24,970 bases of DNA from a virus (Duplodnaviria; Caudoviricetes), in the IMG/VR virus record IMGVR_UViG_3300032318_000081, positions 1-24,970 of that record. One strand, 5' to 3'. Position 1 is the first letter of the stretch, and the number at the start of each line of letters is the position of its first letter. Below, in pieces: positions 4,220 through 24,475 of this stretch. The notes beneath the pieces were generated by a model that was not told where the DNA came from, did no database searches, and was given only the letters and a program-made list of their open reading frames with translations. Position numbers and translations under genes: made by a program.

Positions 4220-4422
4220 GAGAGCAATTTGTGCGGATAGCAATGGCTCGCCTACGCAGCATCTATCCATTCAAACCTCAACGCAGAGCAGTTGCTGCTC
4301 GTATGTGGGTTCAATATCTTGAACGATACGCCAAGCGTGAGTGGGAGCGTAACGAAGAAGAGATGAACAAACGGATGGATATCATCGGGCAGAACGGCAA
4401 CACAGGCGAACACTATGAGTAG
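4216..4422 (+). CDS. Hypothetical basic protein ending RMDIIGQNGNTGEHYE
   Basis: ATG lies in repeat 3; overlaps the next gene. Confidence 0.7.
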   Translation: MREQFVRIAMARLRSIYPFKPQRRAVAARMWVQYLERYAKREWERNEEEMNKRMDIIGQNGNTGEHYE

Positions 4423-5356: not shown

Positions 5357-5868
5357 CTCCCTGCTCACGACCACAAAACCTCAAACGCATCAAGCAGTAC
5401 ATTCCTGAATGGGCTACGTGGGTGGTGATGATGGATGCCTCTACCGACTTCAAAGAAGCAACAGGCGCAAACGTAACCCACTACTCTACCAAGACAGGAC
5501 ATTGGGGAAACCCACTACGCAATGAGTTCCTTGACCTCTACCAAGACCAATTCACGCAAGATGACTGGGTATACTATCTGGATGATGATAACATCTTACA
5601 CCCGAAGTTCAATGAGCAATGGTCAAACCTCCATAACCTTGACTCCTCAATCGTAACGTGGGGACAAGAGGGAAGGCTACGCCCTACTGACCAACCAAAA
5701 GTCGGGAACATAGACACCGCTTGCTATATGTTCAAGCCATACCACCTACCCAAGCTACGCTTTGAGAATATATACGAGGCCGATGGCCTATTCGCTGCTG
5801 CTGCCGCACGGCAAGGAACACTCATCTGCGTGGATTCCTATCTTTGCTACTACAACGCTCTGCGATGA
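5341..5868 (+). CDS. Glycosyltransferase, GT-A fold (GT2/GT43-like)
   Basis: LYIVTPCSRP.NL N-terminal strand, GNPLRN, VYYLDDDN (DxD motif), IDTAC and YEADG.F. Confidence 0.8.
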   Translation: MLYIVTPCSRPQNLKRIKQYIPEWATWVVMMDASTDFKEATGANVTHYSTKTGHWGNPLRNEFLDLYQDQFTQDDWVYYLDDDNILHPKFNEQWSNLHNLDSSIVTWGQEGRLRPTDQPKVGNIDTACYMFKPYHLPKLRFENIYEADGLFAAAAARQGTLICVDSYLCYYNALR

Positions 5869-6392
5869 AAACCTACAAAGAGATTCAAGGGTGGTTCAAC
5901 CACCAAGCAGCATATGACTTCCTGCTATCGCAAATCCCAGAAGGAGGCACGTTCGTAGAACTCGGTGCGTGGCTCGGTAAGTCATCTGCTTACCTATGTG
6001 ACAAATCAACACATCAAAACATCACCATCATTGATTCTTGGAAAGGGTCAGAGAACGAACTTGACACGACTCATCAGCTCGCAACGGAGGTAGACATCTA
6101 CGACCTGTTCGTTGAGAACATGGGAGAGCGCAAATACAAAGCCATCAGAACAACATCCAAAGCAGCATCCAAGAAATTCAAGAACGAATCCTTAGACGTA
6201 GTCTTTATAGACCTAACCCATACATATGAAGCGGTAAAGGAGGATATTCAACTATGGCTACCCAAAGTAAAGAAGGAAGGCTACATAGCAGGAGATGACT
6301 ACCACGAACATTGGCAAGGAGTAATCCAAGCCGTAGATGAACTCCTGCCACACGCCACGTTCATTGATGACTGTTGGCTCTACAAGAAATGA
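5865..6392 (+). CDS. Class I SAM-dependent methyltransferase (Methyltransf_24-like, non-DNA substrate)
   Basis: VELGAWLGKS, IIDSW and DVVFIDLTHTYEAVKEDI..WLPKVK.EGYIAGDDY; ATG 5865 overlaps the upstream TGA. Confidence 0.85.
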   Translation: MKTYKEIQGWFNHQAAYDFLLSQIPEGGTFVELGAWLGKSSAYLCDKSTHQNITIIDSWKGSENELDTTHQLATEVDIYDLFVENMGERKYKAIRTTSKAASKKFKNESLDVVFIDLTHTYEAVKEDIQLWLPKVKKEGYIAGDDYHEHWQGVIQAVDELLPHATFIDDCWLYKK

Positions 6393-6651: not shown

Positions 6652-7749
6652 ATGAAACGAGTACCCATCTCGCAGGTTATTCCTAACCCTACCAACCCAC
6701 GCATAATCAAGGACGATAAGTTTAAGAAGCTCGTAAAGTCCATTGAGGAGTTCCCTGAAATGCTTGAGCTACGCCCAATCGTAGTGGATAGCAATATGGT
6801 GGTACTGGGTGGGAATATGCGCCTGAAGGCTTGCATTGCAGCAGGACTTAAAGAAGTTCCTATCATCGTAGCGGATAACCTTACCGAGCAGCAACAGGCG
6901 GAATTCATCATCAAAGACAACGTGGGCTTCGGAGAATGGGATTGGGACTTGCTCGCTAACCAATGGGATGTAGAAGCGTTAGAGGATTGGGGACTTGAGC
7001 TGCCCTTTGACAATACGCCTGTGCTTGAAGCGGAGGAGGATGACTACGAAGCACCAAGCGAAATACAAACGGACATCGTATTAGGTGACCTGATAGAGAT
7101 AGGCCACCACCGACTGTTATGTGGGGACTCTACCGATAGCGACCAAGTGGCTCGGCTGATGAATGGTGAGAAGGCTGATATGGTATTCACCGACCCACCA
7201 TACGGAATGAACGCAGTATCAAAGTCAGGCGTACTGAAGGAAAAATACGGAAGTGATATTCTTGGTGATAGCGACACGAATGCAGCAAAAGATTCATTCA
7301 ATCTGATTTATTCATTGTACCCCGATGCTTTGCACATTTGGTGGGGTGCGAACTACTACTCATCCTGCTTGCCCGATTCTGAATGTTGGATTGTTTGGGA
7401 TAAGAACAATGGTGGAAGCGACCAAACCGATTGCGAGCTTGCGTGGTCAAACGCACGAAGTGTGGTACGCCAATACACAAAGGCATCAGAAAAAACCAAC
7501 AGGGTACACCCAACACAAAAACCCGTTGATTTAATTTCGTGGGCATTCAATAAGTTTTGCGACAATGCGAAGCTCATTAGTGACTTTTTTCTTGGTAGCG
7601 GAGCCACAATGGTAGCAGCACACCAACTCAACCGCAAATGCTTTGGTATGGAACTTGACCCGAAGTACTGCCAAGTGATTGTAGACCGAATGCACAAACT
7701 TGACCCATCACTTGAAATCAAAATAAACGGCAAGCCGTATGGCAAATAA
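6652..7749 (+). CDS. ParB/Srx N-terminal domain fused to a beta-class N6-adenine/N4-cytosine DNA methyltransferase
   Basis: NPTNPR...LVKSI...RPIVVD...LGGNMRLKA (ParBc); HRLLCGDS, TDPPYG, HPTQKP, DFFLGSGAT and GMELDPKY (N6_N4_Mtase). Confidence 0.9.
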   Translation: MKRVPISQVIPNPTNPRIIKDDKFKKLVKSIEEFPEMLELRPIVVDSNMVVLGGNMRLKACIAAGLKEVPIIVADNLTEQQQAEFIIKDNVGFGEWDWDLLANQWDVEALEDWGLELPFDNTPVLEAEEDDYEAPSEIQTDIVLGDLIEIGHHRLLCGDSTDSDQVARLMNGEKADMVFTDPPYGMNAVSKSGVLKEKYGSDILGDSDTNAAKDSFNLIYSLYPDALHIWWGANYYSSCLPDSECWIVWDKNNGGSDQTDCELAWSNARSVVRQYTKASEKTNRVHPTQKPVDLISWAFNKFCDNAKLISDFFLGSGATMVAAHQLNRKCFGMELDPKYCQVIVDRMHKLDPSLEIKINGKPYGK

Positions 7750-10444: not shown

Positions 10445-10980
10445 TGACACGGGATGAGCGCATACAGGCGGTGCTTGATAAGTTCGGCAAATACGTTGTG
10501 CAACAGGCGAGAGCAAACCTCACCCGCCAACGCAAGAACGTAACGAAGGATTTGTACGACTCTATTGAATGGACTGCGGTTGCATCAAAGAGTGGTGAGT
10601 CCTTCACGGCAGTACTATCAATGCTTGAGTATGGGCAGTTCCAAGATAGCGGTGTAAAGGGAAAAAGCAGCACCTATGGCTCAGCACAAGGTAGCCCATT
10701 TCGTTTTGGCACAGGCACGGGCAAGAAGGGTGGTCTTACGGAAGCAATGCAAAAATGGGTACGTGCAAGACGCTTTCAGTTCCGCCAAAAGAACGGCAAG
10801 TTTATGAGCTACGATAGCACGGCATTCCTTATCGCACGAAGCGTATACCAAAAAGGAATCCCTGCTTCGTTCTTCTACTCACGACCATTTAACCTCGCAT
10901 TCCAAAAGCTACCTGCTGAATTGGTAGAGGCATACGCACTCACCCCTGATGACTTCAAAGAATTCCTAAAGAAAAAATGA
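10444..10980 (+). CDS. Putative neck/tail completion protein (HK97 gp10-like, basic)
   Basis: T.DLYDSI, YGQFQDSGVKG and FLIARSVYQKGIPA..F...F pattern; strongly basic. Confidence 0.55.
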   Translation: MTRDERIQAVLDKFGKYVVQQARANLTRQRKNVTKDLYDSIEWTAVASKSGESFTAVLSMLEYGQFQDSGVKGKSSTYGSAQGSPFRFGTGTGKKGGLTEAMQKWVRARRFQFRQKNGKFMSYDSTAFLIARSVYQKGIPASFFYSRPFNLAFQKLPAELVEAYALTPDDFKEFLKKK

Positions 10981-12242
10981 GTATACCTGTTTCAGCGACT
11001 CCTGCGTCTATCGCTACGGCTCGCAGCCCAATCTTCATCACGGGCAAGAATAACACGCTGACCAACGATTCGCTGGATGCGATGACTGTGAATATCAGCT
11101 CGTACACGGGAACACAAACGCCAGTAGTAAGCCCGACCACCTACACGCTATCCAAGAACTACTCCATCAACGAGGTCATCAACTTTGAGATATCTGACCT
11201 AATCCGTGAGAAGTTCCAGCATCCATTCGGTAAGGCATTCATCACCGAGCCAAGTGCATCAGAAACAGGCGAAGCAGTATGGGTACGCAGAACAGGAGAT
11301 TGGACTTACTCTGACAATGGCGCAGCACCAACTACGGGTGTTATTGGAACGGTATACTTCTTGGCTCTTGAGGGATACAAATCGCTCGGAGAACTGCAAA
11401 ATGCAGGGGTAACGCAAGCAGGACTTGTGACCTCACGCCCATTCCAAGTGCTTGCAGGCAACTCGCAGAGCCTTGCGGTATCGTACAACACCTACTCAGG
11501 CGTAAACGGATTCACCATTGAAATCAACGGAGTAGAGTATTGGTTCTCGCTCAAGGATGAGCTGGGATGGGCTAATACAACCACGACCTCTACGCAGATG
11601 GTCATCTATATTCCGAGTGGCGTTACCAACGTAGCAACATTCTTAGGCGTAACACCAACCGATGACTACACCATCAACCTGCTTGTCAACAACGAGTGTA
11701 TCAGCTACAACGACCGAGTGAAGGCTGATGGCGGAACGGTAGAAGCACTTGGCTGCCTATGCGAAGCGGTAGATGCTCTTGGCGGTAACGATGACAAGGT
11801 AGCCTACGACTTTGAGGTGGTATGCGAACCTAAGTACGACCCATATCTAATTCAGTTTGTAAACAAGTACGGGGTATCTGACTACCTTACGTTCTTCAAG
11901 AAGTCAACGGAGCAGGGTAACTTCACGCAAGACCAATACCAAAAGAGCATCTATGCGGATGCGTATACGGATGTCAACTACGTGAACGGCAAATACCAAT
12001 CGTTCAATATCAATTCTCGCAACACGCTAACGCTCAACACAGGCTTCGTGGATGAGTCGTATGGTGCTATCATGGAGGAGATTCTGATGAGCGAGAAGGT
12101 AGCAGTATACGAGGATGGTCAATGGGTAGCAATCCAACCAAATCGTGGAACTATTGACTACCAGAAATCCATCAATGACAAGACCATTAACTACACGATG
12201 AGCTTCACCTATGCGTTTGACCAACGGATGCTTGTACGATGA
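10977..12242 (+). CDS. Virion tail protein (distal-tail-like C-terminal domain) carrying one copy of the RV..DGG motif
   Basis: Beta-rich, Ser/Thr-rich N-terminal part; C-terminal FVNKYGVSDY.TF...LTLNTGFVDE...EEILMSEKV. Confidence 0.55.
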   Translation: MSIPVSATPASIATARSPIFITGKNNTLTNDSLDAMTVNISSYTGTQTPVVSPTTYTLSKNYSINEVINFEISDLIREKFQHPFGKAFITEPSASETGEAVWVRRTGDWTYSDNGAAPTTGVIGTVYFLALEGYKSLGELQNAGVTQAGLVTSRPFQVLAGNSQSLAVSYNTYSGVNGFTIEINGVEYWFSLKDELGWANTTTTSTQMVIYIPSGVTNVATFLGVTPTDDYTINLLVNNECISYNDRVKADGGTVEALGCLCEAVDALGGNDDKVAYDFEVVCEPKYDPYLIQFVNKYGVSDYLTFFKKSTEQGNFTQDQYQKSIYADAYTDVNYVNGKYQSFNINSRNTLTLNTGFVDESYGAIMEEILMSEKVAVYEDGQWVAIQPNRGTIDYQKSINDKTINYTMSFTYAFDQRMLVR

Positions 12243-14248
12243 ATAAGGTTGATATTTATGTCAATGGTCAGAGGCTTGATGTATTCCAAGATGAGGAGAT
12301 AAACCTCAACATCTCGGTGCAGAATGTTCAGGACATCAGCAAGGTGTTCACCGACTTCACGCAAGGGTTCACCATTCCTGCTACGCCAACCAACAATGCC
12401 ATCTTCGGGTACTACTACCGCACCGATTTTAGTGGCACGTTTGATGCTCGCTTTCGCCAAGATGCGTTCATTGAAATCAACTCGTTGCCATTTCGCTCTG
12501 GCTCGGTAGAGCTTGATGGTGTACAACTAAAAGGTACTGAACCCTACGCCTACAACATTACGTTCTATGGCGGCTTGGTAAACCTCACCGACTTGTTTGG
12601 TGATGACTACCTGTATGACCTGAACTTCAGCGCATACGACCACGCTTATACGGATGATGCAGTTTTTGATAGATTCACTACCGAATACGACAATGCGTTC
12701 TTTTATCCGTTGATGAGTCCTGTCAAGAATTGGTTTTATGATTCAAGAAATGGAAACCACGATGATAACAACTTACACTATCACAATAATAGCGAACAAC
12801 ACGGAATCCACTACTACGAGCTGAAGCCTGCGATGAAGGCATACGCTATATTGGATGCCATAGAAGCAAAATACGGAATCACCTTCACGGGTTCATTCTT
12901 ATCAGCCAATCCATTCGTAGACCTATCGCTATGGCTTCACCGCTTTGAGGGCTATATGTTTGCTTCAGGAAACGACATTGAGTGGAGGCTTATCAACTTT
13001 AACCGAAATACGGGTAGCGGCAGCCAATTCAATCTGACCACCGAAACGTGGACAGTACCAGAGAGCAAAGAATACGACCTTGACATCACGATGGCCAACG
13101 TAGACCAGAACTACGAGTTGGGTGTGTTCCGCAATGGCGTATTTGATTATTCGGTTTTAGTAGATGCACATCCTTCTTCATCGGTTACAAGCACGATGGA
13201 GAACTTGCTATACACGGAAGGAGATACTATTCAGTTATTCATCCGACCACAGGTAGCAGCATCTATGAACTACCAATGCACGGACTATTCAGGCATCAAC
13301 TCTTTAGCGGGTGTTGAATTCTCGGTAGACCAGACACTTGCTGCGGTATATACCTTCACGGTGATAGTTACCGACCTAATGCCTGAAATCAAGGTAAGGG
13401 ACTTCCTTGCTGGTATCTTGAAGATGTACAACATGGTCATCGTACCTACCACATCTACATCGTTCTTGCTTCAGCCGTTGGATGATTGGTACGCAGCAGG
13501 AAGCGACAAGGACTACCAATCCTACTTTGACATCACGGAGTACTCGGTAAACCGACCTCCGCTATTTAGGGAGATTGAATTCAAGTACCAAGACACGGAG
13601 CAGATACTCGGCTTCCAATATCAGAAAGCTAATAATACAGGGTTTGGTGACCTTCGCAACTTCTTTGCATTTGATGCAGAGGATTTCATTATTGAAGTTC
13701 CGTTTGAGTGTCCATTGTTTGAAAGATTAACCGACCAACGTACGGGTGCATTAACCAACGTACTTGTCTACAAGAGCATCACCGAGAATACAAACGAGGA
13801 TGGCACATTTAACAAATACTTGGGTGCGCCTGTTGTTTTTTATGCTTCGTATGGGGATTACTTTATTGATTCAAACCCCGTTGCATTTGTAAACTCGGAC
13901 AATAATACAAGCAGAAGGGTAGACTATTGTTGGTACGCTAATACCTCAAATCTACCAACAAGCGCAGGAGCATCGTACTCTACGTGCTTTGGTGCAGACA
14001 TTGACCCATACCACCTACAAAGCGTAAGCCGCAGTTTATACAACGAATACTGGAGCGACTACATCACCGACCTTTACAACGTAAGGCGTAGGCTCTTTCA
14101 AGTTGATGCGGTTCTACCGCTTGGTGCTATGCTATCTATGAACCTCCAAAACGGAGTAATCTGGAACAACAACAAGTACATTGTCAATTCCGTGCAGGTG
14201 AGTCTGACCACAGGCAAAGCAACATTTGAACTCCTTAACGTAGTATGA
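12239..14248 (+). CDS. Tail tip/baseplate hub-like protein
   Basis: 669 aa; N-terminal LDVF.DE.I...FTQGFTIPAT..NNAIF and C-terminal YIVNSV......ATFELL; adjacent to the tape measure gene. Confidence 0.55.
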   Translation: MNKVDIYVNGQRLDVFQDEEINLNISVQNVQDISKVFTDFTQGFTIPATPTNNAIFGYYYRTDFSGTFDARFRQDAFIEINSLPFRSGSVELDGVQLKGTEPYAYNITFYGGLVNLTDLFGDDYLYDLNFSAYDHAYTDDAVFDRFTTEYDNAFFYPLMSPVKNWFYDSRNGNHDDNNLHYHNNSEQHGIHYYELKPAMKAYAILDAIEAKYGITFTGSFLSANPFVDLSLWLHRFEGYMFASGNDIEWRLINFNRNTGSGSQFNLTTETWTVPESKEYDLDITMANVDQNYELGVFRNGVFDYSVLVDAHPSSSVTSTMENLLYTEGDTIQLFIRPQVAASMNYQCTDYSGINSLAGVEFSVDQTLAAVYTFTVIVTDLMPEIKVRDFLAGILKMYNMVIVPTTSTSFLLQPLDDWYAAGSDKDYQSYFDITEYSVNRPPLFREIEFKYQDTEQILGFQYQKANNTGFGDLRNFFAFDAEDFIIEVPFECPLFERLTDQRTGALTNVLVYKSITENTNEDGTFNKYLGAPVVFYASYGDYFIDSNPVAFVNSDNNTSRRVDYCWYANTSNLPTSAGASYSTCFGADIDPYHLQSVSRSLYNEYWSDYITDLYNVRRRLFQVDAVLPLGAMLSMNLQNGVIWNNNKYIVNSVQVSLTTGKATFELLNVV

Positions 14249-14397
14249 AGCAGACGTATTTAGGTTATTTGATTGAACTCCTCAACTCGGATGAGTGGAT
14301 TGGTGCAGGCGAGAATATAGAAATCGCCAAAGGCAAGCATAAACTACCCGAAGGATGGAACGAATATATTAAGTTGCAATGGCGGCAGTTGAAGTAA
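14245..14397 (+). CDS. Small hypothetical protein (50 aa, MKQTYLGYLIELLNSDEW...IEIAKGKHKLPEGW...), not in the ORF track
   Basis: ATGA overlap at 14245 and TAA at 14395-14397; bridges the hub and tape measure genes. Confidence 0.7.
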   Translation: MKQTYLGYLIELLNSDEWIGAGENIEIAKGKHKLPEGWNEYIKLQWRQLK

Positions 14398-15917
14398 TTG
14401 AGATTAAAGGTGATGCCTCCTCCGCTATTGCGGCTTTAAAGGCCGTAGGCATTGAGGCTAACAAGACCACAACGGCTGCACAAAAAAGCAATGAGGCTAT
14501 CAACGATGGCCTTGAGGCATTAGACAAGCAGACCAATGGTGCGGTATCAGCGTTCCGCAGTTTGCAGGGTGGAATCAAGAGTGCAGTTACCGCATTCACT
14601 ACGCTCAAAGGAGCAATCATCGCTACGGGTCTTGGTGCGCTATTGGTAGCAGTAACATCGCTCGTTACCTATTTCAAAGAAACCGAACGAGGCGGTGACC
14701 AGCTCGCTGAGGTTATGGGCTTTCTTGGAGCAGCAGTCAAGGTCGTAATTGACCGAGTAATTCTCTTGGGTGAGTCATTATTTAAACTATTCTCAGGGGA
14801 CTTTAAGGGAGCGATTGAAGGCGTAACGGGAGCATTCAAGGGATTGGGTGATGAGATTGCAAGAGAGAGCAAACTCGGTCGTGAACTCGCCAAGCAACTC
14901 AACGATGTAGAGGATGCAGAACGTGCGCTCATCGCACAACGTGCCATCGCTAACAAACAGATTGCAGAGGCTCGCTTGATTGCCGATGACGTTAACAAGA
15001 CCACCGAGCAGCGAATTGCTGCGGTTAAACGTGCAGGTGCTATTGAAGAACGAGTAGCACGGCAGGAACTTGCCGTTCAGCGTCAGCGTTTGTCAGTCCT
15101 TGAGCAGCAGGCTAAGATGGGCGAGGCTACCGAAGAAGGACTCACCCGCATTGAGGAGGCACGTGCAAGAATCTCCGAGCTGGAGCAAGCAAACATTATG
15201 CGTAGGAAGCGTTTGCAGACCGAAACTATTGGGCTTCTAAACGAAGAAATCGCCAAGACTAAAGAACTTGAGAAGGCTCGCCAAGATGCCGAGAAAGTAC
15301 GCTTTGAGGATAGCGAAAAGAAGTTTAAGAAGTACGTTGATGACTCGGTAAATGCGGCCAATGTAGGCGCAGGTCAGGTAGCAAGAGTCGGACAATTTTA
15401 TGCGGAGGCTATCGCTCAAGGAACAGAAACTTCAGCAGCAGACCTTAGTGACTACATCAACTTCACGCTTGCGAACCTTGATGCAGTAAGTCAAGCCATT
15501 AGCGGATTTGCTGCGCTTGCAGGAGAGAACACCAAACTAAGCAAGGCACTTGCCATCTCGCAGATTGTCATTGACACGTATATGGGTGCTACCAAAGCGC
15601 TCGGTGCGTACCCGCCTCCATTTGGTGCTATCGCAGCAGCAGGAGTTATCGCAGGAGGTATCGCCAACCTCAACAAGGTAAAGTCAACGCAGATACCCAC
15701 CTCTCCAAGTGCTGCACCTACGGCTACTATCTCTGCACCTACCGCAGCATCACAACCACCGCAGTTCAACATCGTTGGGCAGGGTGGCGTGAACCAATTA
15801 GCGCAGAGCATCGGTGGTCAGTTTGACCGACCGCTACGTGCGTATGTGGTGAGCCAAGACATTAGCACCGCACAACAACTGCAACGCCAACGAGTAAGAA
15901 CCGCAACATTCGGATAA
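14379..15917 (+). CDS. Tail tape measure protein (512 aa)
   Basis: Ala/Gly-rich amphipathic helices (AIIATGLGALLVAV), long coiled coil, and C-terminal RAYVVSQDI..AQ. Confidence 0.8.
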   Translation: MAAVEVIEIKGDASSAIAALKAVGIEANKTTTAAQKSNEAINDGLEALDKQTNGAVSAFRSLQGGIKSAVTAFTTLKGAIIATGLGALLVAVTSLVTYFKETERGGDQLAEVMGFLGAAVKVVIDRVILLGESLFKLFSGDFKGAIEGVTGAFKGLGDEIARESKLGRELAKQLNDVEDAERALIAQRAIANKQIAEARLIADDVNKTTEQRIAAVKRAGAIEERVARQELAVQRQRLSVLEQQAKMGEATEEGLTRIEEARARISELEQANIMRRKRLQTETIGLLNEEIAKTKELEKARQDAEKVRFEDSEKKFKKYVDDSVNAANVGAGQVARVGQFYAEAIAQGTETSAADLSDYINFTLANLDAVSQAISGFAALAGENTKLSKALAISQIVIDTYMGATKALGAYPPPFGAIAAAGVIAGGIANLNKVKSTQIPTSPSAAPTATISAPTAASQPPQFNIVGQGGVNQLAQSIGGQFDRPLRAYVVSQDISTAQQLQRQRVRTATFG

Positions 15918-16849
15918 TGAAACTTATTGAACTAATCTTAGATGAAACGATGGCACTCACGGGGATTGATGCCATCAGCCTCGTAGAGCATCCTGCTATT
16001 GAAGAGGACTTTATCGCCCTCAAGTCAGAGCGTGTAGAATTCGCTGCACAGGATAACGAGAAGCGCATCCTTATGGGAGCAGCACTCGTTCCAAACAAAC
16101 CCATCTACCGAGTAAATGGCGAGGAGGAGTTCTACGTTTACTTCAGCCAAGACACCATACGCAAAGCGAGTGAGATGTTCTTCCAGAAGGCAAACCAGAA
16201 CAACGCTACGCTTGAACACGAAGTAGAAATCAACGGACTCACGGTTGTAGAGAGCTGGATTATTGAGGATGAGGTTCACGATAAGAGCAAGAAGTACGGC
16301 TTTGAATTGCCTATTGGTACGTGGATGGTTTCCATGAAGGTCAACAACCCTGAGATTTGGGATGGCTTCGTAAAGACAGGCCGTGTCAAGGGATTCTCTA
16401 TTGAGGGCTACTTCGTTGACAAGATGAACTTCGCCAAGCAGGAGATGGAGCGCCTTGAGGAGCAAGAGGCGGCTTTGCTGCTATCACAAATCGTAGCCAT
16501 CATCAAAAAGGATGGGCGCAAGAAAAGCGGTAAGCGTATGGAATTGGAATCCTACTCGGACTACCCACAAGCAGTACGCTCTAACGCCAAGCGTGGTATC
16601 GTGCTGAACGAGAAGAATGGCAACAAATGTGCTACGCCTGTTGGTAAGGTACGAGCGCAGCAGTTGGCGCAAGGCAAGCCTGTAAGCGTAGAAACCATCA
16701 CCCGTATGTACTCGTACCTATCAAGAGCCGAAGAATACTACGATGAGAACGACACTACCGCTTGCGGCACCATCAGCTACCTGCTATGGGGTGGTCTTGC
16801 TGCAAAGCGTTGGGCTGAATCTAAACTTAAAGAATTGGGCAAAATATGA
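15917..16849 (+). CDS. XkdF-like putative prohead serine protease with an additional C-terminal domain
   Basis: LVEHPAIE, RILMGAALVPNKPIYR, TLEH, VESWI, GTWMVSMKV and KGFSIEG. The extra domain starts SYSDYP...CATPVGKVRAQQLA...ISYLLWGG. Confidence 0.75.
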   Translation: MKLIELILDETMALTGIDAISLVEHPAIEEDFIALKSERVEFAAQDNEKRILMGAALVPNKPIYRVNGEEEFYVYFSQDTIRKASEMFFQKANQNNATLEHEVEINGLTVVESWIIEDEVHDKSKKYGFELPIGTWMVSMKVNNPEIWDGFVKTGRVKGFSIEGYFVDKMNFAKQEMERLEEQEAALLLSQIVAIIKKDGRKKSGKRMELESYSDYPQAVRSNAKRGIVLNEKNGNKCATPVGKVRAQQLAQGKPVSVETITRMYSYLSRAEEYYDENDTTACGTISYLLWGGLAAKRWAESKLKELGKI

Positions 16850-17007
16850 TACGACCACAAAAGCTACCCGTAGCCTCACCAAGAGGCGGAAACAGAGGAT
16901 GCCTCTGCAAGGACAATACCTACTCACGTAAGTGCTGCGATGGCTCTCTGCCTGCTCAAGGCATCGGCTCATTGACTGGTCAAGGTGATGTAGAACTCAA
17001 CCCATAA
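16846..17007 (+). CDS. Cys-rich micro-protein (53 aa, ...SPRGGNRGCLCKDNTYSRKCCDGSLPAQGIG...), not in the ORF track
   Basis: ATGA overlap at 16846 and TAA at 17005-17007; CxC...CC motif. Confidence 0.75.
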   Translation: MIRPQKLPVASPRGGNRGCLCKDNTYSRKCCDGSLPAQGIGSLTGQGDVELNP

Positions 17008-17012
17008 AATGT

Positions 17013-17042
17013 TACAAATAACCAACCCTCTTTTATTTAGTT
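17013..17042 (+). promoter_or_regulatory. Candidate late promoter TACAAA-N13-TTTATTTAGTT
   Basis: Same bipartite motif and spacing as at 19292-19321. Confidence 0.6.
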
Positions 17043-17046
17043 AGAT

Positions 17047-17640
17047 ATGAAAGCAAATAATATCCTTAACCGCATCCTTGCCGAACTCAGCTCCATTCGT
17101 GAGGTTAAGTTTGAGCAAATGACCCTTGAGAACGGTGCCGTTCTTGAGGCTGAAGTATTTGAAGCAGGAAACGAAGTATTTGTCATTAGTGGCGAAGACC
17201 GTGTTCCTGCTCCTGTTGGTGAGCATCTTCTTGCTGATGGCCGTGTATTGGTTATCGCTGAAGAAGGTGTAATCGCTGAAATCAAAGAGGCTGCTGCCGA
17301 AGAAGAAGCAAGCGTTGAGATTGAGGTTGAAGCCTCAGTTGAAGAACCCGCTACTGAACTCGCAGAAGTTGAAGTAAAAGAAGAAGCTCCTGCCGTTGCA
17401 GCCATCGTGGAGAAAGTCCTTGAGGAGATTGCAATGATGCGTGAGGAGATGAAAGCAATGCGTGAGGAGATGGGCGGCTACGCCAAGAAGGAGGAGATGG
17501 CATCGGTTAAAGCCGAGCTTTCTGCCGCACCTGCTGCGAAGCCCATCAAACACAACCCCGAAAAAAAGCAAGTCAACAAGGTTGAATTTAATCGCCCCGC
17601 AAAGGCGATTGACCGAGTCCTTGCACGTCTTAACAAATAA
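17047..17640 (+). CDS. Capsid scaffolding protein
   Basis: Very acidic, Glu/Ala-rich coiled coil with a basic C-terminal helix (IDRVLARLNK); between the protease and major capsid genes. Confidence 0.7.
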   Translation: MKANNILNRILAELSSIREVKFEQMTLENGAVLEAEVFEAGNEVFVISGEDRVPAPVGEHLLADGRVLVIAEEGVIAEIKEAAAEEEASVEIEVEASVEEPATELAEVEVKEEAPAVAAIVEKVLEEIAMMREEMKAMREEMGGYAKKEEMASVKAELSAAPAAKPIKHNPEKKQVNKVEFNRPAKAIDRVLARLNK

Positions 17641-17658
17641 TAAAACCCGAAAAATCAA

Positions 17659-18585
17659 ATGGCTACGACCACCACGATTACCACTTCGTACGCTGGACAA
17701 TTTGCCAGCAAGTACATCTCTGCTGCTCTGTTGAGCGCAGACACGCTGGACAAAGGACTCATTGAAATCCTTCCCAACGTAAACTACCGCACCACCCTTC
17801 AGAAGGTTAACACCGACTCTATCGTTCGTGACGCAACTTGCGACTTTGACGCTACGTCTACGCTGACCTTGACTGACCGTGTTCTTGAGGTTGAACCGTT
17901 CCAAGTTAACCTGCAACTCTGCAAGAAGGACTACTACGATTCTTGGATTGGTGGTCAAATGGGCTTCTCTGCTTACGATAGCATCCCCGCTTCGTTCGCT
18001 GACTTCCTTATCGCCCACGTTGCTGCTAAGACTGCCCAAAAGATTGAGCAGAACATCTGGAATGGTAACGCTGCTTCTGCTGGTGAATTCTCTGGCTTCC
18101 TGTCTTTGATGACTGCTGACTCTGACGTTGTTGACGTAACGGCTACCACCGTAACGGCTTCTAACGTAATCACCGAGCTTGGTAAGGTTGTAGACGCTAT
18201 CCCCGCTGCCCTTTACGGCAAGGAGGACTTGACCATTTACGTTCCGCAAAACGTTGCTAAGGCTTACGTTCGTGCTTTGGGTGGCTTCGCTGCTGCTGGT
18301 GTAGGTGCTAACGGTCTTGACAACAAAGGCACGATGTGGTACGGTGACCAGCCTCTGTTCTTTGATGGTATCAAAGTAGCTATGGCTAACGGCCTTCCTT
18401 CAAACCGTATGGTTGCTGCTCAGTCTTCTAACCTGTTCTTCGGTACGGGTCTGCTGAACGAGCGTAACGAGGTTCGTGTCCTTGATATGGCTGACCTTGA
18501 CGGCTCTGACAACATCCGTGTAATCTTGCGCTTCTTCGCAGGTGTTCAGTACGGTATCGGTTCTGACGTAGTTCTCTACTCTTAA
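17659..18585 (+). CDS. Major capsid protein
   Basis: 308 aa, strongly biased highly-expressed codon usage, follows the scaffold, IEQNIWNG motif, terminator downstream. Confidence 0.8.
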   Translation: MATTTTITTSYAGQFASKYISAALLSADTLDKGLIEILPNVNYRTTLQKVNTDSIVRDATCDFDATSTLTLTDRVLEVEPFQVNLQLCKKDYYDSWIGGQMGFSAYDSIPASFADFLIAHVAAKTAQKIEQNIWNGNAASAGEFSGFLSLMTADSDVVDVTATTVTASNVITELGKVVDAIPAALYGKEDLTIYVPQNVAKAYVRALGGFAAAGVGANGLDNKGTMWYGDQPLFFDGIKVAMANGLPSNRMVAAQSSNLFFGTGLLNERNEVRVLDMADLDGSDNIRVILRFFAGVQYGIGSDVVLYS

Positions 18586-18608
18586 TCCGAGTCATAGTTT
18601 AAACCACG

Positions 18609-18641
18609 AGGGGGTGTGGGTTCTGCCCCGCCCCCTTTTTT
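18609..18641 (+). terminator. Rho-independent terminator after the major capsid gene
   Basis: AGGGGGTGTGGG-TTCTG-CCCCGCCCCCT stem plus T-tract. Confidence 0.75.
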
Positions 18642-18663
18642 AATTCTAAAAAACAAACAAACA

Positions 18664-19215
18664 ATGCCTTGCGATTTAACATTAGGACGTGCAGTACCGT
18701 GTAAAGACGTAGTCGGTGGGATTAACAAAGTATTCTTCATCAACTACGATGACTTGGGTACGGTTACTCTGTCATCTGACGATAGCATCAGCAACATTTC
18801 AGGCACGTTTACTGCCTACGAATATGATGTAAAAGGAAACTCATCTTTTGAGCAGACTATCAACTCAAGCCGTGAGAATGGTACTACCTTCTTCACGCAG
18901 ACGTTGAACTTGACCTTGACCAAGCTCACGAAGCAGGACAATAAGCAATTGAAGTTGATGGCTTACGGCCGCCCTCAGGTGGTTGTACAGGACTACAACG
19001 GCAATGCGTTTATGATGGGTCTTAACTACGGAGCAGAGGTTACGGGTGGAACGATTGTAACGGGTGCTGCTATGGGTGACCTTTCTGGCTACACGTTGAC
19101 TCTTGAGGCTCAGGAGCAACTGCCCGCCAACTTCATTGATGGTGCTACGGTTGCAAATCCGTTTGCAGGACTTGCAGGTGCAGTTGAAACCATTGTTGTG
19201 GGTTCCAACTCATAA
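18664..19215 (+). CDS. Major tail (tube) protein
   Basis: MPCDLTLGRAVPCKDVVGGI...SRENGTTFFTQTLNLTL...GYTLTLEAQE. ATG 18664 follows the A-rich leader AAACAAACAAACA; the track's GTG 18616 start lies inside the terminator. Confidence 0.7.
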   Translation: MPCDLTLGRAVPCKDVVGGINKVFFINYDDLGTVTLSSDDSISNISGTFTAYEYDVKGNSSFEQTINSSRENGTTFFTQTLNLTLTKLTKQDNKQLKLMAYGRPQVVVQDYNGNAFMMGLNYGAEVTGGTIVTGAAMGDLSGYTLTLEAQEQLPANFIDGATVANPFAGLAGAVETIVVGSNS

Positions 19216-19225
19216 CGTATATTTG
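19195..19225 (+). promoter_or_regulatory. Bacteroidota primary-sigma promoter GTTGTGG-N14-CGTATATTTG
   Basis: Same architecture as 2044-2074 (GTTGTGG-N14-CGTACATTTG). Confidence 0.6.
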
Positions 19226-19227
19226 TG

Positions 19228-19290
19228 TTGTGCTATTGAACGGAATGGCGCAAATGGATGGAGAAGGGGGGCGAAAGCCCCTCTTTTTTT
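19228..19290 (+). ncRNA. Candidate ~60-nt small RNA (two hairpins)
   Basis: Promoter immediately upstream; hairpin TTGTGCTATT-GAACGG-AATGGCGCAA; then the terminator. Confidence 0.4.
19263..19290 (+). terminator. Rho-independent terminator with GAAA tetraloop
   Basis: GGGGC-GAAA-GCCCC followed by TCTTTTTTT. Confidence 0.9.
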
Positions 19291-19291
19291 A

Positions 19292-19321
19292 TACAAAAGT
19301 TTAGGCGGAGGTTATTTAGTT
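19292..19321 (+). promoter_or_regulatory. Candidate late promoter TACAAA-N13-GTTATTTAGTT
   Basis: Directly after a terminator and 3 nt before ATG 19325; matches 17013-17042. Confidence 0.6.
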
Positions 19322-19324
19322 GAG

Positions 19325-19759
19325 ATGCATATTCTACAAGTATCGGCTTTGCCTCAAACAATTACCATCATCCCTCGTGAGTTTGTTTTTTCTCAAGAGG
19401 ATTTGGATTTTTACTTTGAGCGTGTGTTGCTTGATAATGGTACGCTTGAGGGCGTATTATGCGTTGAGAGCGCATTAAACAACCTTGATGGTGTTACGCT
19501 ACTCTTGACCGATGAAAGCACCAACACAACCGCTACAATCAATCCTACGATTGAGGAGGCAAACGGCTTTATGTACCTGACTTCTACCTTTACATTGGTC
19601 AACAACCGATTCTACGGACTGAAGGTATTTTACGATGGAGATTTAATCTACCGAGATAGGGTCTTCGTAACGCCACAAACTGACTACGCCAAATTCACGG
19701 TAAACCAAAATGTCTACACGGAAGAAACAAGCTACGACAATGACTACATCATCATCTAA
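19325..19759 (+). CDS. Virion structural protein (possible head-closure/neck protein) with one copy of the RV..DNG motif
   Basis: MHILQVSALPQTITIIPR...; beta-rich; precedes the portal. The track start at 19103 crosses a terminator. Confidence 0.55.
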   Translation: MHILQVSALPQTITIIPREFVFSQEDLDFYFERVLLDNGTLEGVLCVESALNNLDGVTLLLTDESTNTTATINPTIEEANGFMYLTSTFTLVNNRFYGLKVFYDGDLIYRDRVFVTPQTDYAKFTVNQNVYTEETSYDNDYIII

Positions 19760-21503
19760 AGTCCACGTAGTAAACCTGTCCTCTTACACCACCCCTAACA
19801 TCACAGAGGTGCAGGGTAAAGATTGGGTATCCTATGGTGATGACAATAACTACTTTCAGTACCTGATTGACCGATACAACGGCTCACCAACCAACAACGC
19901 CCTAATCAATGGCGTGGTGGACTTTATCTACGGCAAGGGATTGGATGCTACGGATTCTGCTCGTAAGCCAAGTGAGTACGCAGCAATGCGTGGCCTGTTC
20001 ACTAAGGACTGCGTAAAGCAGCTCGTTGCTGACTATAAGATGATGGGTCAATGTGCCATTCAGGTCATCTACTCTCAAGACCACAATATGATTGTAGAGA
20101 TTGCCCACATTCCCATTGAAACGCTCCGTGCGGAGAAGTGCGATGAGGATGGCGAGATTAAGGGTTATTACTACGCCAAGAGTTGGTCGGATGTTGCTTC
20201 ACGCAAAGAAACGCCTGTACGCATCCCTGCGTTCGGAACGAGCAAGGAAGGTCTTGAGGTGTTGTACATCAAGCCATACCGAGCAGGATTCTACTACTAC
20301 TCACCCGTAGACTATCAAGGCGGCCTGCCGTATGCAGACCTTGAGGAGGAGATTGCGAACTTTCACATCAACAACATCCAGAACGGCCTCAACCCTTCTA
20401 TGCTCATCAACTTCAACAACGGAGTACCCAGCGAGGAGGAGCGCAGAACTATTGAGATGCAGATTGCAAACAAGTTCAGCGGCACGAATAACGCAGGAAA
20501 GTTTATCTTGGCGTTCAATGACAATGCTGAATCAAAAGCTACGCTTGATACGGTACAACTGAGTGATGCTCACAACCAATATCAGTTCTTGTCCAACGAG
20601 GCAATGCAGAAGCTGATGGTGGCTCACCGCATCACTTCTCCTATGCTTATGGGCATCAAGGATAGCTCAGGCTTAGGAAACAACGCAGAGGAGCTTAAAA
20701 CGGCTTCTATCCTGTTTGAGAACATCGTAATCAAGCCGATGCAAGAAACGCTGCTTGATGGATTTGAGAAGATTCTTATCTACAACGACATCAACCTCAA
20801 CCTGTACTTCAAAACGCTTCAGCCTCTTGAGTTCAGCAATGACATTGAAACGCCAATGGACGCTGAAACCCGTGAAGAAGAAACGGGAGTGAAGTTATCC
20901 AGCCAAGAGCCGAGCGATGAGCATTTTGATGAGGTCTTTGCTGCTTTGGAAGAAGTAGGCGAGGTCATCAACGAAGATGAATGGGAACTTGTAGATGAGC
21001 GTCCCGTTGACTACGAAGCAGAGCAAGCATTGAGCAAGTACGCCTTCGCATCAACAGGCAGCGCATTCCCGAACGCTAAAAGCTCGCAGGATGGCGTAAC
21101 CGAAGAAGGTCGCAGGTACAAAGTACGCTACGCTTACGCTCCGAATGCTACGAAGGCCAATAGCCGTGAGTTCTGCAAGAAGATGGTAGCAGCAAGCAAG
21201 GTATACCGCAAGGAGGACATTGAGCGCATGGGAAGCCAAGCGGTAAACGCAGGATTCGGTGTAGCAGGAGCAGCCACGTACTCTATCTGGTTGTATAAGG
21301 GCGGAGCAAGATGCCACCACTTCTGGATGCGTAAGACCTACCTCGCAAAAGCCGAAGGCGTAACGCCTGATGTAGGCAACCCCAACGCTGAGGTCACGGT
21401 AAACCAAGCCAAGCGAGCAGGAGTAGATTTAGAGCAGAACCCTTCGGATGTTGCAAAGCGTCCAACGGATATGCCAAACAATGGATTTGTAAACCCACGA
21501 TAA
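19740..21503 (+). CDS. Portal protein with C-terminal extension (minor-head/MuF-like Cys/His domain)
   Basis: YGDDNNY, SPTNNALI, NNIQNGLNPSMLI, FSGTNNAGKFIL and MVAHRITSP.LMGI portal motifs; extension SREFCKKM...KGGARCHHFW. Start ATG 19740 (or 19710). Confidence 0.8.
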   Translation: MTTSSSKVHVVNLSSYTTPNITEVQGKDWVSYGDDNNYFQYLIDRYNGSPTNNALINGVVDFIYGKGLDATDSARKPSEYAAMRGLFTKDCVKQLVADYKMMGQCAIQVIYSQDHNMIVEIAHIPIETLRAEKCDEDGEIKGYYYAKSWSDVASRKETPVRIPAFGTSKEGLEVLYIKPYRAGFYYYSPVDYQGGLPYADLEEEIANFHINNIQNGLNPSMLINFNNGVPSEEERRTIEMQIANKFSGTNNAGKFILAFNDNAESKATLDTVQLSDAHNQYQFLSNEAMQKLMVAHRITSPMLMGIKDSSGLGNNAEELKTASILFENIVIKPMQETLLDGFEKILIYNDINLNLYFKTLQPLEFSNDIETPMDAETREEETGVKLSSQEPSDEHFDEVFAALEEVGEVINEDEWELVDERPVDYEAEQALSKYAFASTGSAFPNAKSSQDGVTEEGRRYKVRYAYAPNATKANSREFCKKMVAASKVYRKEDIERMGSQAVNAGFGVAGAATYSIWLYKGGARCHHFWMRKTYLAKAEGVTPDVGNPNAEVTVNQAKRAGVDLEQNPSDVAKRPTDMPNNGFVNPR

Positions 21504-21506
21504 GAT

Positions 21507-22007
21507 ATGCCCACCGCCCTCTGGATAAAACGTGAAGACATTGTCCGCCAAACTGCCTTAGGCGGCAACGTGGACCAAGACAAGTACCTGCAATTCATTA
21601 AAGTAGCCCAAGAAATTCATCTTCAAAACTACACGGGTACTCGTTTGTACGACAAGATTAGCAACGATATTCTTGCGGGGACTCTCACGGGTCGCTACTT
21701 GGCATTGCTAAACGACTACCTTCAGCCGATGCTCATACATTGGGCTATGGTGGAGTACTTGCCTTTTGCTGCGTACACGATTGCCAATGGCGGGGTATAC
21801 AAGCACACAAGCGAGAATTCAACAAGCGTAGAGAAAAACGAGGTTGACTTTTTGGTGGAGAAGGAGCGCAACATTGCTCAGTACTATACTGACCGCTTCA
21901 TCACCTATATGAGCTACAACCAAGCGCAGTTTCCTGAATACTATCAAAACTCAAATGCCGATGTCTTCCCCGATACGGACGCAAACTTTTCAAGCTGGGT
22001 GCTTTAG
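21507..22007 (+). CDS. Head-tail adaptor/connector protein
   Basis: Helical 166-aa protein after the portal; IKVAQEIHLQNYTGTRLYDKI...LQPMLIHWA. Confidence 0.6.
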   Translation: MPTALWIKREDIVRQTALGGNVDQDKYLQFIKVAQEIHLQNYTGTRLYDKISNDILAGTLTGRYLALLNDYLQPMLIHWAMVEYLPFAAYTIANGGVYKHTSENSTSVEKNEVDFLVEKERNIAQYYTDRFITYMSYNQAQFPEYYQNSNADVFPDTDANFSSWVL

Positions 22008-22083
22008 TAAGAAGCAATATGAACCTAAGAAGGGCAATATACTCAAGCTGCAAAGTTATTTAAAAGAGAAAGAGAAGAAATGA
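21961..22083 (+). CDS. Possible small basic ORF (...SKKQYEPKKGNILKLQSYLKEKEKK); start uncertain
   Basis: Frame open from ATG 21961; TGA 22081-22083 overlaps ATG 22080. Confidence 0.4.
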   Translation: MSSPIRTQTFQAGCFSKKQYEPKKGNILKLQSYLKEKEKK

Positions 22084-22397
22084 ACCTAATCAGCTGGGGT
22101 ATTATATATTGTTCGTCTTGGTTTGGACAAACCGATGAAACGACCTTGTCCATCCAGAACGAGTCAGCACCTCCGTGCTTCTCTCCTGCAAATGAAATCG
22201 TAGACCAATACGTAACCCGTGTAACCAATGATGGTGGGGTAGTTGAGGGGTACGATTGCTTGGTGGCTGCTATTCAGGACTTGAACGAGGACACCTACTA
22301 CGATATTTTTGATACTTAAATCCAGCGTATGACCGATGACGGAGCAACATTGGAGGGAGAAGAATGCTTGATTGACCAACTATTTATTTTGAACTGA
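22080..22397 (+). CDS. Small virion-associated protein with two tandem RV..DGG motifs, interrupted by an in-frame TAA at 22317-22319
   Basis: After the TAA the frame reads IQRMTDDGATLEGEECLIDQLFILN, a second motif copy, and its TGA overlaps the next ATG (TGATG). Confidence 0.7.
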
Positions 22398-24079
22398 TGA
22401 GCAGTTATTTTGATGAGGCAAGCCTCGTAATGATTCCTTCGGGATACAAGAACCAAAAGGTCTACTCGGTGAAGCCTTTGGATGGGTCGGGTGACCTTAC
22501 GTTCAGCCGTGCCTCAAGTGCAACCCGTGTTGCAAGTAATGGCCTTATTGAGAAGGTGCGTACGAATCTTGCTACTTATAGCAGTGACTTTGCAAGCTCT
22601 GGCTCTCCTATTGATGCAACGGTTTCAACAAATACAACTACTGACCCTTTTGGCACTTCGCTTGCTGATTCTTTGCTTGAGGCAGCAACTACGGGAAACC
22701 ACCTTTGGTATCGTGACTTTACTGTTGTAAATGGTTACGAGGTAACATTCTCTGTTTATGTAAAAAGCATTGGAGGTCGCAATGTGCGCATCTCTGGAAG
22801 CACAGGTACTGGTTCTGAATTAGCCGTTGTTGACTTGTCAAATGGTTCAATTCTTGCATCAAGTGGTGCAGTAAGCGTAACGTCTGTTGGTAGCGGTTGG
22901 TATCGTATTAGCGTTACAACTACTTCAACGGGAACAACTGTACGATTCATTGCTTACGCAGCTGATGGAACGTCTATTTCTTATGCTGGCAACACATCAA
23001 AAGGAATCTACCTTTTTGGTCAGCAGTTGGAGTATGGGGTAATGACCGCCTACATCGCCACCACCAGCGCAGCGGTAAGCGTTGGCCCAGTTAGTGGGTT
23101 ACCCCGTTTGGACTACCTTGGGTCAACATGCCCAAAAATTCTCCTGGAACCAAGCAGAACGAACACCTGCCTATGGTCAGAACAGTTTAATAACGCAGGA
23201 TGGAGTACGGACAATAGCGGCGGAACCGGTACAATCACCAGGACGGCAAATTACGCAACCAGTCCAGACGGAACAACCAACGCGGATAGAATTCAAATCA
23301 CGCGCGGTTCTATTTACGCAAACATTTTTCAATCGGTAAGCACTACCGTTGGCCAAACATACACGGCAAGCGTTTACCTTAAGTCATTGTCGGGTACACC
23401 GGCCGTTAGTATGCTTTATGCTGACACGGCATATCGCAAAACGTTAACGACCGAGTGGGCGCGTTACACCGTAACATTTACGGCAACTGGAACCAGCGCC
23501 GCGCCTTTGATTGGCCTCTTTGCTGGGGATGCAGCCAGCTGCGACGTTTTGGCCTACGGCTACCAGTTCGAACTTGGTGCCTACGCCAGCTCGTACATCC
23601 CCACATTGGGAACGAGCGTTACAAGGGTTGCGGATGCTGCTTCTAAAACGGGCATTAGCTCGCTTATCGGGCAGACGGAGGGGACTTTGTTTGTTGATTT
23701 GACTGAAGTGAATGATTTGGACTTCCCTGAAATCACGATAGACAATAACAACAATACCGACCGAATCGTACTTACTCGCTCAGCTGCTGGTAACTGGGGA
23801 ATCTTTGTAGCTTCATCGGCTGCTTCTACCTACTCGGTGTACTCTACAACGTCATCAAGCAGCGGAAAATTTGCGCTTGCTTATTCATCGGCTGGGTACA
23901 CGCTATACCGAAATGGGGTGCAGATTGTAACGGGAACGTATAACCTTCCTACTGCTCTGTCGGCAGTACGACTGAATGGGCGTTCATCTTCTGACTTCTA
24001 CGCTACCAAGAAAGTAGGTCAACTTGTTATTTTCCCTACTCGTTTGTCAAATAGCGACCTCGCTGCCTTAACTGCCTAA
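22397..24079 (+). CDS. Fibre/spike-like structural protein with repeated carbohydrate-binding-like beta-sandwich modules and a LamG-like C-terminus
   Basis: ASLVMIPSGYK...FSRASSATRV N-terminus; two modules RTN...(Y/W)S..F...SVY.K...W.R..VT...Q(L/F)E.G....YI.T; Ser/Thr/Gly-rich. Confidence 0.7.
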   Translation: MSSYFDEASLVMIPSGYKNQKVYSVKPLDGSGDLTFSRASSATRVASNGLIEKVRTNLATYSSDFASSGSPIDATVSTNTTTDPFGTSLADSLLEAATTGNHLWYRDFTVVNGYEVTFSVYVKSIGGRNVRISGSTGTGSELAVVDLSNGSILASSGAVSVTSVGSGWYRISVTTTSTGTTVRFIAYAADGTSISYAGNTSKGIYLFGQQLEYGVMTAYIATTSAAVSVGPVSGLPRLDYLGSTCPKILLEPSRTNTCLWSEQFNNAGWSTDNSGGTGTITRTANYATSPDGTTNADRIQITRGSIYANIFQSVSTTVGQTYTASVYLKSLSGTPAVSMLYADTAYRKTLTTEWARYTVTFTATGTSAAPLIGLFAGDAASCDVLAYGYQFELGAYASSYIPTLGTSVTRVADAASKTGISSLIGQTEGTLFVDLTEVNDLDFPEITIDNNNNTDRIVLTRSAAGNWGIFVASSAASTYSVYSTTSSSSGKFALAYSSAGYTLYRNGVQIVTGTYNLPTALSAVRLNGRSSSDFYATKKVGQLVIFPTRLSNSDLAALTA

Positions 24080-24082
24080 CCT

Positions 24083-24475
24083 ATGAAATTCCTAAAATAC
24101 GAGTTCACGCCCAGCCAATGGGCTACGGCTAAAGCCAAGATTGAAACAACGGGTACTGACCCCGAAGGCGAAACCTACACCACTTGGAACTCCGAGTTGG
24201 TTACGGCAGTAGTTGAGTTAGGCTACCTCTGCACCGAATGGGGTACGGATGAAGAAGGCAACCAAGTTTGCTTGAAGACCTCACCGAAGTACGCAGTTGA
24301 CATCCTGTGGACTGGTGAGCCTCTTGCTACCTCTTTTGCCTCATACGTTGTATGGCCTGCTCCTTGTGGGGTTCACATCTTCGCAGGATGGGAGCAAGCA
24401 TACGCAGAGGAATACTGCAAGGCCAACCCCGAAGCAGCATACTGCCAACCTCCTGTACCTCCTGTTGAGCAATGA
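24083..24475 (+). CDS. Hypothetical protein (possible fibre assembly chaperone)
   Basis: Follows the fibre gene; acidic; YAVDILW...GVHIFAGW. Confidence 0.55.
   Translation: MKFLKYEFTPSQWATAKAKIETTGTDPEGETYTTWNSELVTAVVELGYLCTEWGTDEEGNQVCLKTSPKYAVDILWTGEPLATSFASYVVWPAPCGVHIFAGWEQAYAEEYCKANPEAAYCQPPVPPVEQ

Follow-up and report, generated by a model that had tools for sequence, protein, structure and literature searches.

Whether a single type of fibre could be attached at several sites of one phage particle is the question raised by a 24,970-base stretch of DNA (IMG/VR record IMGVR_UViG_3300032318_000081; hereafter the window), which is the whole contig of a tailed phage and carries, on one strand, terminase, portal, head protease, capsid and tape-measure genes. 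The window encodes four copies of a 25-residue motif, here termed the tag, in two larger proteins and in a small adaptor gene directly ahead of a fibre gene; the original prediction held that this motif is a portable tag by which one fibre can be attached at several virion sites. We consider it likely (probability roughly 0.8) that the tag docks in trans into a socket at the N-terminus of the fibre, where a disulfide would probably lock it; because the tag would bind the socket in trans, each protein that carries it would be an attachment point for the same fibre. Comparison of sequences among relatives established the optional insertion of the tag, its fusion to fibres, its gene neighbourhood, a cognate second tag and the joint loss of a cysteine pair, and the docking itself is predicted by models. 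The features that carry the argument, with genes named by their first position, are as follows.

10977..12242, plus strand: putative tail protein of 421 amino acids (aa), PHROG 35281, host of tag 1; family of gp44 of phage P12024S
11706..11780, plus strand: tag 1 (residues 244-268), which replaces a shorter loop of tag-less homologues
19325..19759, plus strand: 144-aa protein that hosts tag 2, its gene directly ahead of that for the portal; predicted immunoglobulin (Ig)-like fold (filamin/TIG-type)
19394..19492, plus strand: 33-aa insert (residues 24-56) around tag 2 (19412-19486), absent from tag-less homologues
19460-19462, plus strand: codon of Cys46 of the 19325 protein
22080..22397, plus strand: small adaptor gene for a W/G-rich leader (~40 aa) and two tags; product of 79 aa in the window
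22209..22283, plus strand: tag 3, translated
22317..22391, plus strand: tag 4, first codon TAA versus TAC (Tyr) in relatives
22397..24079, plus strand: fibre (adhesin) of 560 aa, family of Rcc01080 of the Rhodobacter capsulatus gene transfer agent (RcGTA); fold taken from the fused homologue P0123
22403..22486, plus strand: predicted socket (fibre residues 3-30)
23129..23131, plus strand: codon of fibre Cys245, predicted to form a disulfide with the cysteine of the tag

All four 25-codon stretches sit where they had been reported and translate as quoted, and R4, D8, E13, C17 and L25 are common to all of them. The copies were said to be diverged in DNA, and pairs are identical at 8-12 of 25 residues and 34-39 of 75 nucleotides (45-52% DNA identity), which rules out a DNA-level repeat or mobile element. 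The claim that the host proteins share nothing else also held, as BLAST between the 10977, 19325 and 22080 proteins and the fibre, with the motif masked, gave a best E of 2.2; a common domain larger than the motif is ruled out by this lack of mutual similarity. When leave-one-out profiles of three copies were run over the six frames of the window, the left-out copy was regained at E = 8e-4 (11706), 0.14 (19412), 4e-6 (22209) and 8e-3 (22317), with the best unrelated match at E = 0.65; copy 2 (19412) is weak from the window alone and is settled by comparison with its relatives. Pfam and PHROG searches for a named family returned only weak matches to the unnamed PHROGs 31097 and 28256, the former being the family of P12024S gp05, itself a tag carrier; a PDB sequence search for a solved relative gave a best E of 0.64, and no description of the tag was found in the open-access literature, supplements aside.

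The tag as a front piece of the fibre

The suggestion that the motif would be found fused to 22397-like fibres elsewhere was borne out by 92 of the 120 best matches to a query of tag plus fibre N-terminal domain. Fused chains read leader, tag, fibre, with the tag directly ahead of the first strand of the fibre, and two long proteins (P0370 and P0376) repeat tag and N-terminal domain as a unit. None of the 120 closest relatives of the window fibre carries a tag. Because the tag is fused in 92 of 120 related fibres and absent from the window fibre, the window motif is, as judged from sequence, the N-terminal element of the fibre, cut off and pasted onto other proteins. By eye, a 22397-family gene lies directly behind 51 of 56 small tag proteins, with contig ends (2) or other neighbours (3) behind the rest. 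For a comparison of fused and free forms, 103 loci of at most 20 kilobases each were picked by tag and fibre start; a first pass left 28 loci unexplained, mostly fused variant tags by eye, and the profile was then refined. A free tag was found in 0 of 31 loci with a fused fibre only and in 66 of 67 with an unfused fibre, while 5 loci held both kinds; the lone unfused locus without a free tag looks like a divergent fusion.

The profile of the fibre family (107 homologues) matched 6tb9_F3, the entry for Rcc01080, among PDB sequences at E = 2.6e-50 over profile positions 84-305. In the model of P0123, a concanavalin A (ConA)-like domain starts at the first strand of the fibre and holds an inserted carbohydrate-binding module, which matches Pa193 gp46 (Z = 23.0, root-mean-square deviation 2.0, 188 aligned); fold matches to sialidases and to the binding domains of toxins, a reflection of the widespread ConA-like fold, were disregarded. 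The first 57 fibre residues are nearly constant and the body is variable. Contigs of four sequencing runs are alike before 22567-22573, just after residue 57, and divergent beyond it; because these contigs share the start and diverge at this point, fibre bodies are taken to be exchanged while the socket stays constant.

Relatives were sampled as 130 loci, which are partial and incompletely dereplicated, some contigs having been fetched twice. Homologues without the insert, for which the original prediction had proposed a search, are common: the tag is present in 67 and lacking in 29 of 96 complete homologues of 19325, and present in 54 and lacking in 19 of 73 homologues of 10977. Tagged and tag-less forms of 19325 (144 versus 111 aa) differ by a clean 33-aa insert. 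Two further genes belong here, the first of which has homologues with the tag in 6 of 71 cases.

12239..14248, plus strand: putative tail-tip protein of 669 aa, PHROG 38559, no tag in the window
16846..17007, plus strand: Cys-rich 53-aa protein, no tag in the window

The insertion site also varies, with the tag at two sites in the 10977 family, at the N-terminus, middle or C-terminus in the 12239 family, and in two different loops of the gene in the 19325 slot. Other hosts include a head-closure protein (PF05521), two further families of large proteins, and many proteins of 44-130 aa that consist of a variable leader and one to three tags. A strict DNA pattern retrieved about 1,600 stretches in IMG/VR, and the tag profile retrieved 285 protein clusters at 50% identity, at least one of the top 150 of which looks spurious. 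Over 474 tag copies, conservation reaches 99% for R, 96% for D, 97% for G, 99% for E and 97% for C. With regard to the roles of the hosts, gene order suggests that they are virion proteins, that 10977 is a putative tail protein and that 10977 and 12239 may belong to the tail tip; profiles of the latter two families had no match in PDB and otherwise hit only unnamed PHROGs and unnamed Atlas clusters. A fold search with 19325 gave common Ig-like matches only (best Z = 7.7), phage neck and collar proteins among them.

The tag is also present in a cultured phage, Nonlabens phage P12024S (Inhavirus), which makes the system testable. The window and P12024S share unnamed PHROG families of structural genes (including 35281, 38559, 29822 and 19091) as well as their order, which shows kinship. 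P12024S carries the tag in gp05, which occupies the 19325 slot (E = 4e-10), and at the C-terminal end of gp09 (E = 8e-8), a paralogue of the gene at 18616 that we take, from gene order, to be a putative tail tube (its PHROG carries no name). The gp09 gene lies directly before that of the unfused fibre gp10, which retains the partner cysteine described below, and no small adaptor was found in P12024S, the tags being in two larger proteins only. Because tblastn searches of cultured phages with tag-only proteins overlooked P12024S, such searches are insensitive. Since the structural genes of the window fall in PHROG families of P12024S, the host of the window phage is probably a member of the Bacteroidota; 16 of 18 DNA-pattern matches in genome contigs fit the tag profile, and 13 of those 16 are in Bacteroidota bins. 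Sequencing runs that hold parts of the window mostly carry freshwater metagenome labels.

In relatives, the adaptor is a single open reading frame (ORF) of 105-106 aa with two tag copies and Tyr at the position of the TAA. The description of 22080 as a two-copy gene thus fits the ORF of the relatives, but the window ORF is cut to one tag and 79 aa by the TAA. Base 22319 is C in three other runs and the TAA at 22317-22319 is private to the window contig, in which tag 4 goes untranslated if the base is correct; contigs cannot separate an assembly error from a mutation at this position, and the window may itself stem from run X1. Recoding of the stop codon at 22317 is ruled out by the TAC in relatives and in the three other runs. 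Translational coupling to the fibre gene had likewise been claimed; the TGATG overlap exists (22395-22399), but because the TAA ends the window ORF early, it couples translation in the intact adaptor allele only. As 72-aa adaptors with one tag occur naturally, the 79-aa form may well work. Homing-endonuclease-like ORFs were seen by eye beside the adaptor gene in three relatives (L007:13235-13561, L062:12137-12571 and L322:7080-7643).

Predicted docking and the cysteine pair

The tag had been described as a helix-turn-helix insert in a beta-rich chain. Two helices are indeed predicted, but the modelled fold is helix, short strand, helix, with the strand added to the fibre; in the model of a fused fibre, the tag forms a helix (18-34), a short bridge (38-39) and a second helix (42-54) at a predicted local distance difference test score (pLDDT) of 95-97. 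Modelled alone, the insert in 19325 reaches a pLDDT of 43-51 on an Ig-like core. Modelling of the complex, one of the checks originally proposed, placed the insert of 19325 on the N-terminus of the window fibre, cysteine on cysteine, with a score of 0.85, the highest of three controls scoring 0.00. Runs had 85% or more of their contacts in common and the pLDDT of the partners was at least 73; 116 of 157 solved pairs, but also 2 of 215 mismatched ones, attain the score mark, figures that are only rough for custom alignments. The modelled interface joins 19325 residues 22-56 and 103-104 to fibre residues 3-30, 47, 238, 244-246 and 541-544; tag residues 39-42 of 19325 pair as a strand with fibre residues 15-18, and fibre C245 touches tag C46. 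The suspected cysteine cross-link is predicted as a disulfide from tag to fibre and not from tag to tag. Memory of a solved complex is an unlikely source of this model, because the tag has no PDB match and the PDB matches of the fibre begin beyond the socket. Covariation in the fused alignment, computed before the complex job, gave the same contacts (F39, E42 and L45 with T66, N68 and L78, in P0123 numbering).

No cysteines other than these two are conserved in most of the 107 alignment rows, of which 85 keep both, 7 neither, 1 that of the tag only and 14 (unfused) that of the fibre. A wider count of fused units found 76 with both cysteines, 8 with neither, 2 discordant and 18 unparsed; 8 of the unparsed units have neither by eye, and by eye the joint loss occurred in at least three lineages.

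The sequences show that the front piece split from the fibre is carried on a leader-bearing adaptor and, as an insert, by two more proteins from the structural module. Its two short helices would clamp fibre residues 3-30, its G-T-L-E strand would be added to fibre strand 15-18, and its cysteine would meet Cys245, the disulfide presumably forming after lysis, in released particles. By analogy with Rcc01080, residues 2-10 of which are described as binding the base pentamer (PMC7296036), the adaptor leader may anchor on the head or neck, and the fibre may bind host polysaccharide (PMC7296036 and PMC10218006). The outcome would be the multivalent display of a swappable polysaccharide-binding adhesin with a variable body and fixed first 57 residues.

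A second tag and the weight of the alternatives

Relatives of the window phage may carry an unrelated fibre family, fibre B, that starts with MGTTLTG and falls in tail-fibre PHROGs; the window family is here called fibre A. The small gene of fibre-B relatives ends in a Trp-rich motif (W-x2-hydrophobic-x3-W-x2-W/T-x3-W). This Trp-rich tag occupies the same site in the 12239 family, after residue ~59, as the Cys tag does in other relatives, and it stands at the C-terminus of 16846 relatives that accompany fibre B; no fused form of it was seen in the loci viewed. Carriers include L056:4008-4214, L057, L062 and L069 (12239 family) and L054 and L058 (16846 family). Across 160 loci, 80 picked by each fibre type, the gene ahead of the fibre held the Cys tag in 79 fibre-A and the Trp tag in 73 fibre-B cases, with 0 crossed and 8 unpaired. 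At a distance from the fibre, the 19325-slot gene bore the Cys tag in 44 of the 51 loci with fibre A, in 2 of the 42 with fibre B and in none of the 4 with both fibres, and the 16846 gene carried the Trp tag in 1 of 30, 19 of 20 and 3 of 3, respectively; in the two-fibre locus L322, both motifs (the Trp motif by eye) occur in one small protein. A third pair, which would chain fibre onto fibre, is possible: in seven loci (L456, L477, L478, L479, L482, L156 and L170), a first fibre that ends in a Tyr/Met-rich tail is followed immediately by a second one whose N-terminus differs.

A number of observations weigh against docking of the tag on the fibre at all of its sites. The link between fibre type and the tag in distant genes was not significant after correction for kinship (p = 0.5 and 0.125) in a test on the capsid-gene tree that had only 5 independent pairs and was underpowered (2.4 and 3.5 in the same direction, 0 opposite); linkage accounts for part of the raw counts. 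The 19325-slot gene is untagged in 7 of the 51 loci with fibre A and bears the Cys tag in 2 of the 42 with fibre B, and the fibre-A locus L357, at which the contig ends, carries a Trp tag. The covariation came from about 40 effective sequences, and two fused proteins retain one cysteine of the pair. The complex was modelled for one of the four copies (19325), and its pass depends on the fusion evidence, as the fibre alignment held 67 rows from the fused-query search, most of them fused, and the fusion may be what the model learned. Finally, binding and disulfide are model predictions, and gene order is what suggests the location in the virion.

Several of these observations would also fit docking by the adaptor tag alone, with the copies in larger proteins as spare or vestigial cassettes spread by recombination, or as occasional binders: fibre A occurs with an untagged 19325-slot gene, the fibre-B loci L018 and L035 are tagged with no fibre A in view, the kinship-corrected test was not significant, and one adaptor copy is knocked out in the window contig. 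We regard this explanation as unlikely, since the inserts retain R, D, E, C and L despite their divergence in DNA, R, D, E and C are kept throughout the 474 copies, the complex test was passed by the insert of 19325, and the tags of P12024S are in larger proteins.

Less probable still is a role of the tag as a split-domain chaperone that completes the fibre fold in trans, with anchoring by another route. The tag completes the first domain of fused fibres in the model and is predicted to add a strand to the fibre, as a chaperone might, but related fibres fold without it (the matched part of Rcc01080 has no partner cysteine, and in the fibre of Mea-Yong924-1 both tag and cysteine are missing), fibres that are not fused lack their own leader, and such a role needs no insertion into many structural proteins. 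It is very improbable that the tag ties accessory proteins together by binding to itself or to some common protein of the virion (capsid or tail tube), with the fibre as one passenger: tandem adaptor copies, up to three or four, could oligomerise, yet tag type tracks fibre type even though unfused fibres are tag-less, the tag cysteine is lost jointly with that of the fibre, and the modelled interface lies on the fibre.

Docking of the tag in the fibre socket thus remains our preferred reading, and we give slightly better than even odds to its extension, i.e., that phages of Bacteroidota use a natural tag-and-catcher code in which portable peptides, once part of fibre N-termini, are inserted into proteins of the neck, tail and head, each fibre family reads its own tag (at least two orthogonal pairs, perhaps with the fibre-on-fibre pair as a third), a disulfide locks the Cys-tag pair, and 100-bp insertions are how adhesins evolve in number and position. 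Such a system would provide a concrete rule for fibre attachment in a large group of aquatic phages, give a role to several unnamed PHROG families, allow fibre attachment sites to be read from a genome, and explain how fibre bodies are swapped without touching the virion core.

One neighbouring gene lies behind the fibre.

24083..24475, plus strand: 130-aa protein, encoded behind fibres of this family in relatives (gene neighbourhood)

Its product is possibly a fibre-specific assembly helper; fibre B in relatives is followed by other small genes. Among otherwise near-identical relatives, the tape-measure gene (14379-15917; 26-97% identity) and the portal gene (19710-21503; 586-689 aa) are highly variable. 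Ahead of the terminase gene, we take 4415-6392 by eye to hold two glycosyltransferases and a methyltransferase (three ORFs) and 6652-7749 to be a ParB-like/DNA methylase ORF.

Comparison with known systems

The closest parallel in function is found in podophages of Klebsiella (KP32, K11 and KP34), for which PMC13352976 describes a conserved docking peptide and a branching domain. Compared by this description only, the two systems are alike in that a pair of short peptide and folded domain fixes a swappable receptor-binding protein. In the KP32 type, the second fibre bears the peptide and the first fibre bears the domain, and only the anchor domain touches the virion; the window system would have the inverted polarity, with the peptide on the scaffold and the socket on the fibre, and places the peptide in unrelated proteins at many sites versus a single site. 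Unlike the KP32 pair as described, the window pair stems from a split of the fibre's own N-terminus and has a predicted disulfide. A KP32-type N-terminal peptide was absent from window-type fibres (0/120), and the window fibre, whose predicted socket is its own N-terminus, had no match to the KP32 branching-domain family.

The head spike of RcGTA consists of the base pentamer Rcc01079 and the fibre Rcc01080 (PMC7296036 and PMC10218006); the former source also reports that Rcc01080 binds capsule and that its residues 2-10 bind the base pentamer. The fibre body in the window is homologous (E = 2.6e-50), but the match covers neither tag nor socket, its aligned part lacks the partner cysteine, and RcGTA has a single attachment type. 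An IGLGLG-type leader like that of Rcc01080 opens many adaptors and fused fibres (a loose pattern finds it in 25 of 120 small tag proteins); neither the window fibre nor its adaptor, with its W/G-rich leader, has the N-terminal IALGLGLGL-type peptide found in many relatives, and no spike-base gene was recognised in the window. Small genes adjoin fused fibres or adaptors in two relatives. Presumably these beta-rich products (L182:6137-6379, minus strand, and an 88-aa gene after a 107-aa tag protein in L150), which have no Pfam or PHROG match, resemble a head-spike base.

Finally, modular and possibly covalent attachment, a donated strand and orthogonal pairs are known from cohesin-dockerin, pilus donor-strand complementation and SpyTag/SpyCatcher. 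The likeness of the window tag to these is analogy only, as no Pfam, PHROG or PDB match indicates kinship, and the link predicted here is a disulfide versus the isopeptide of SpyTag/SpyCatcher. The tag system is real and widespread, a variant of fibre docking by peptide and domain for which a specific mechanism is predicted, and its 25-residue tag, predicted covalent catcher and orthogonal second pair would be a useful protein-coupling tool.

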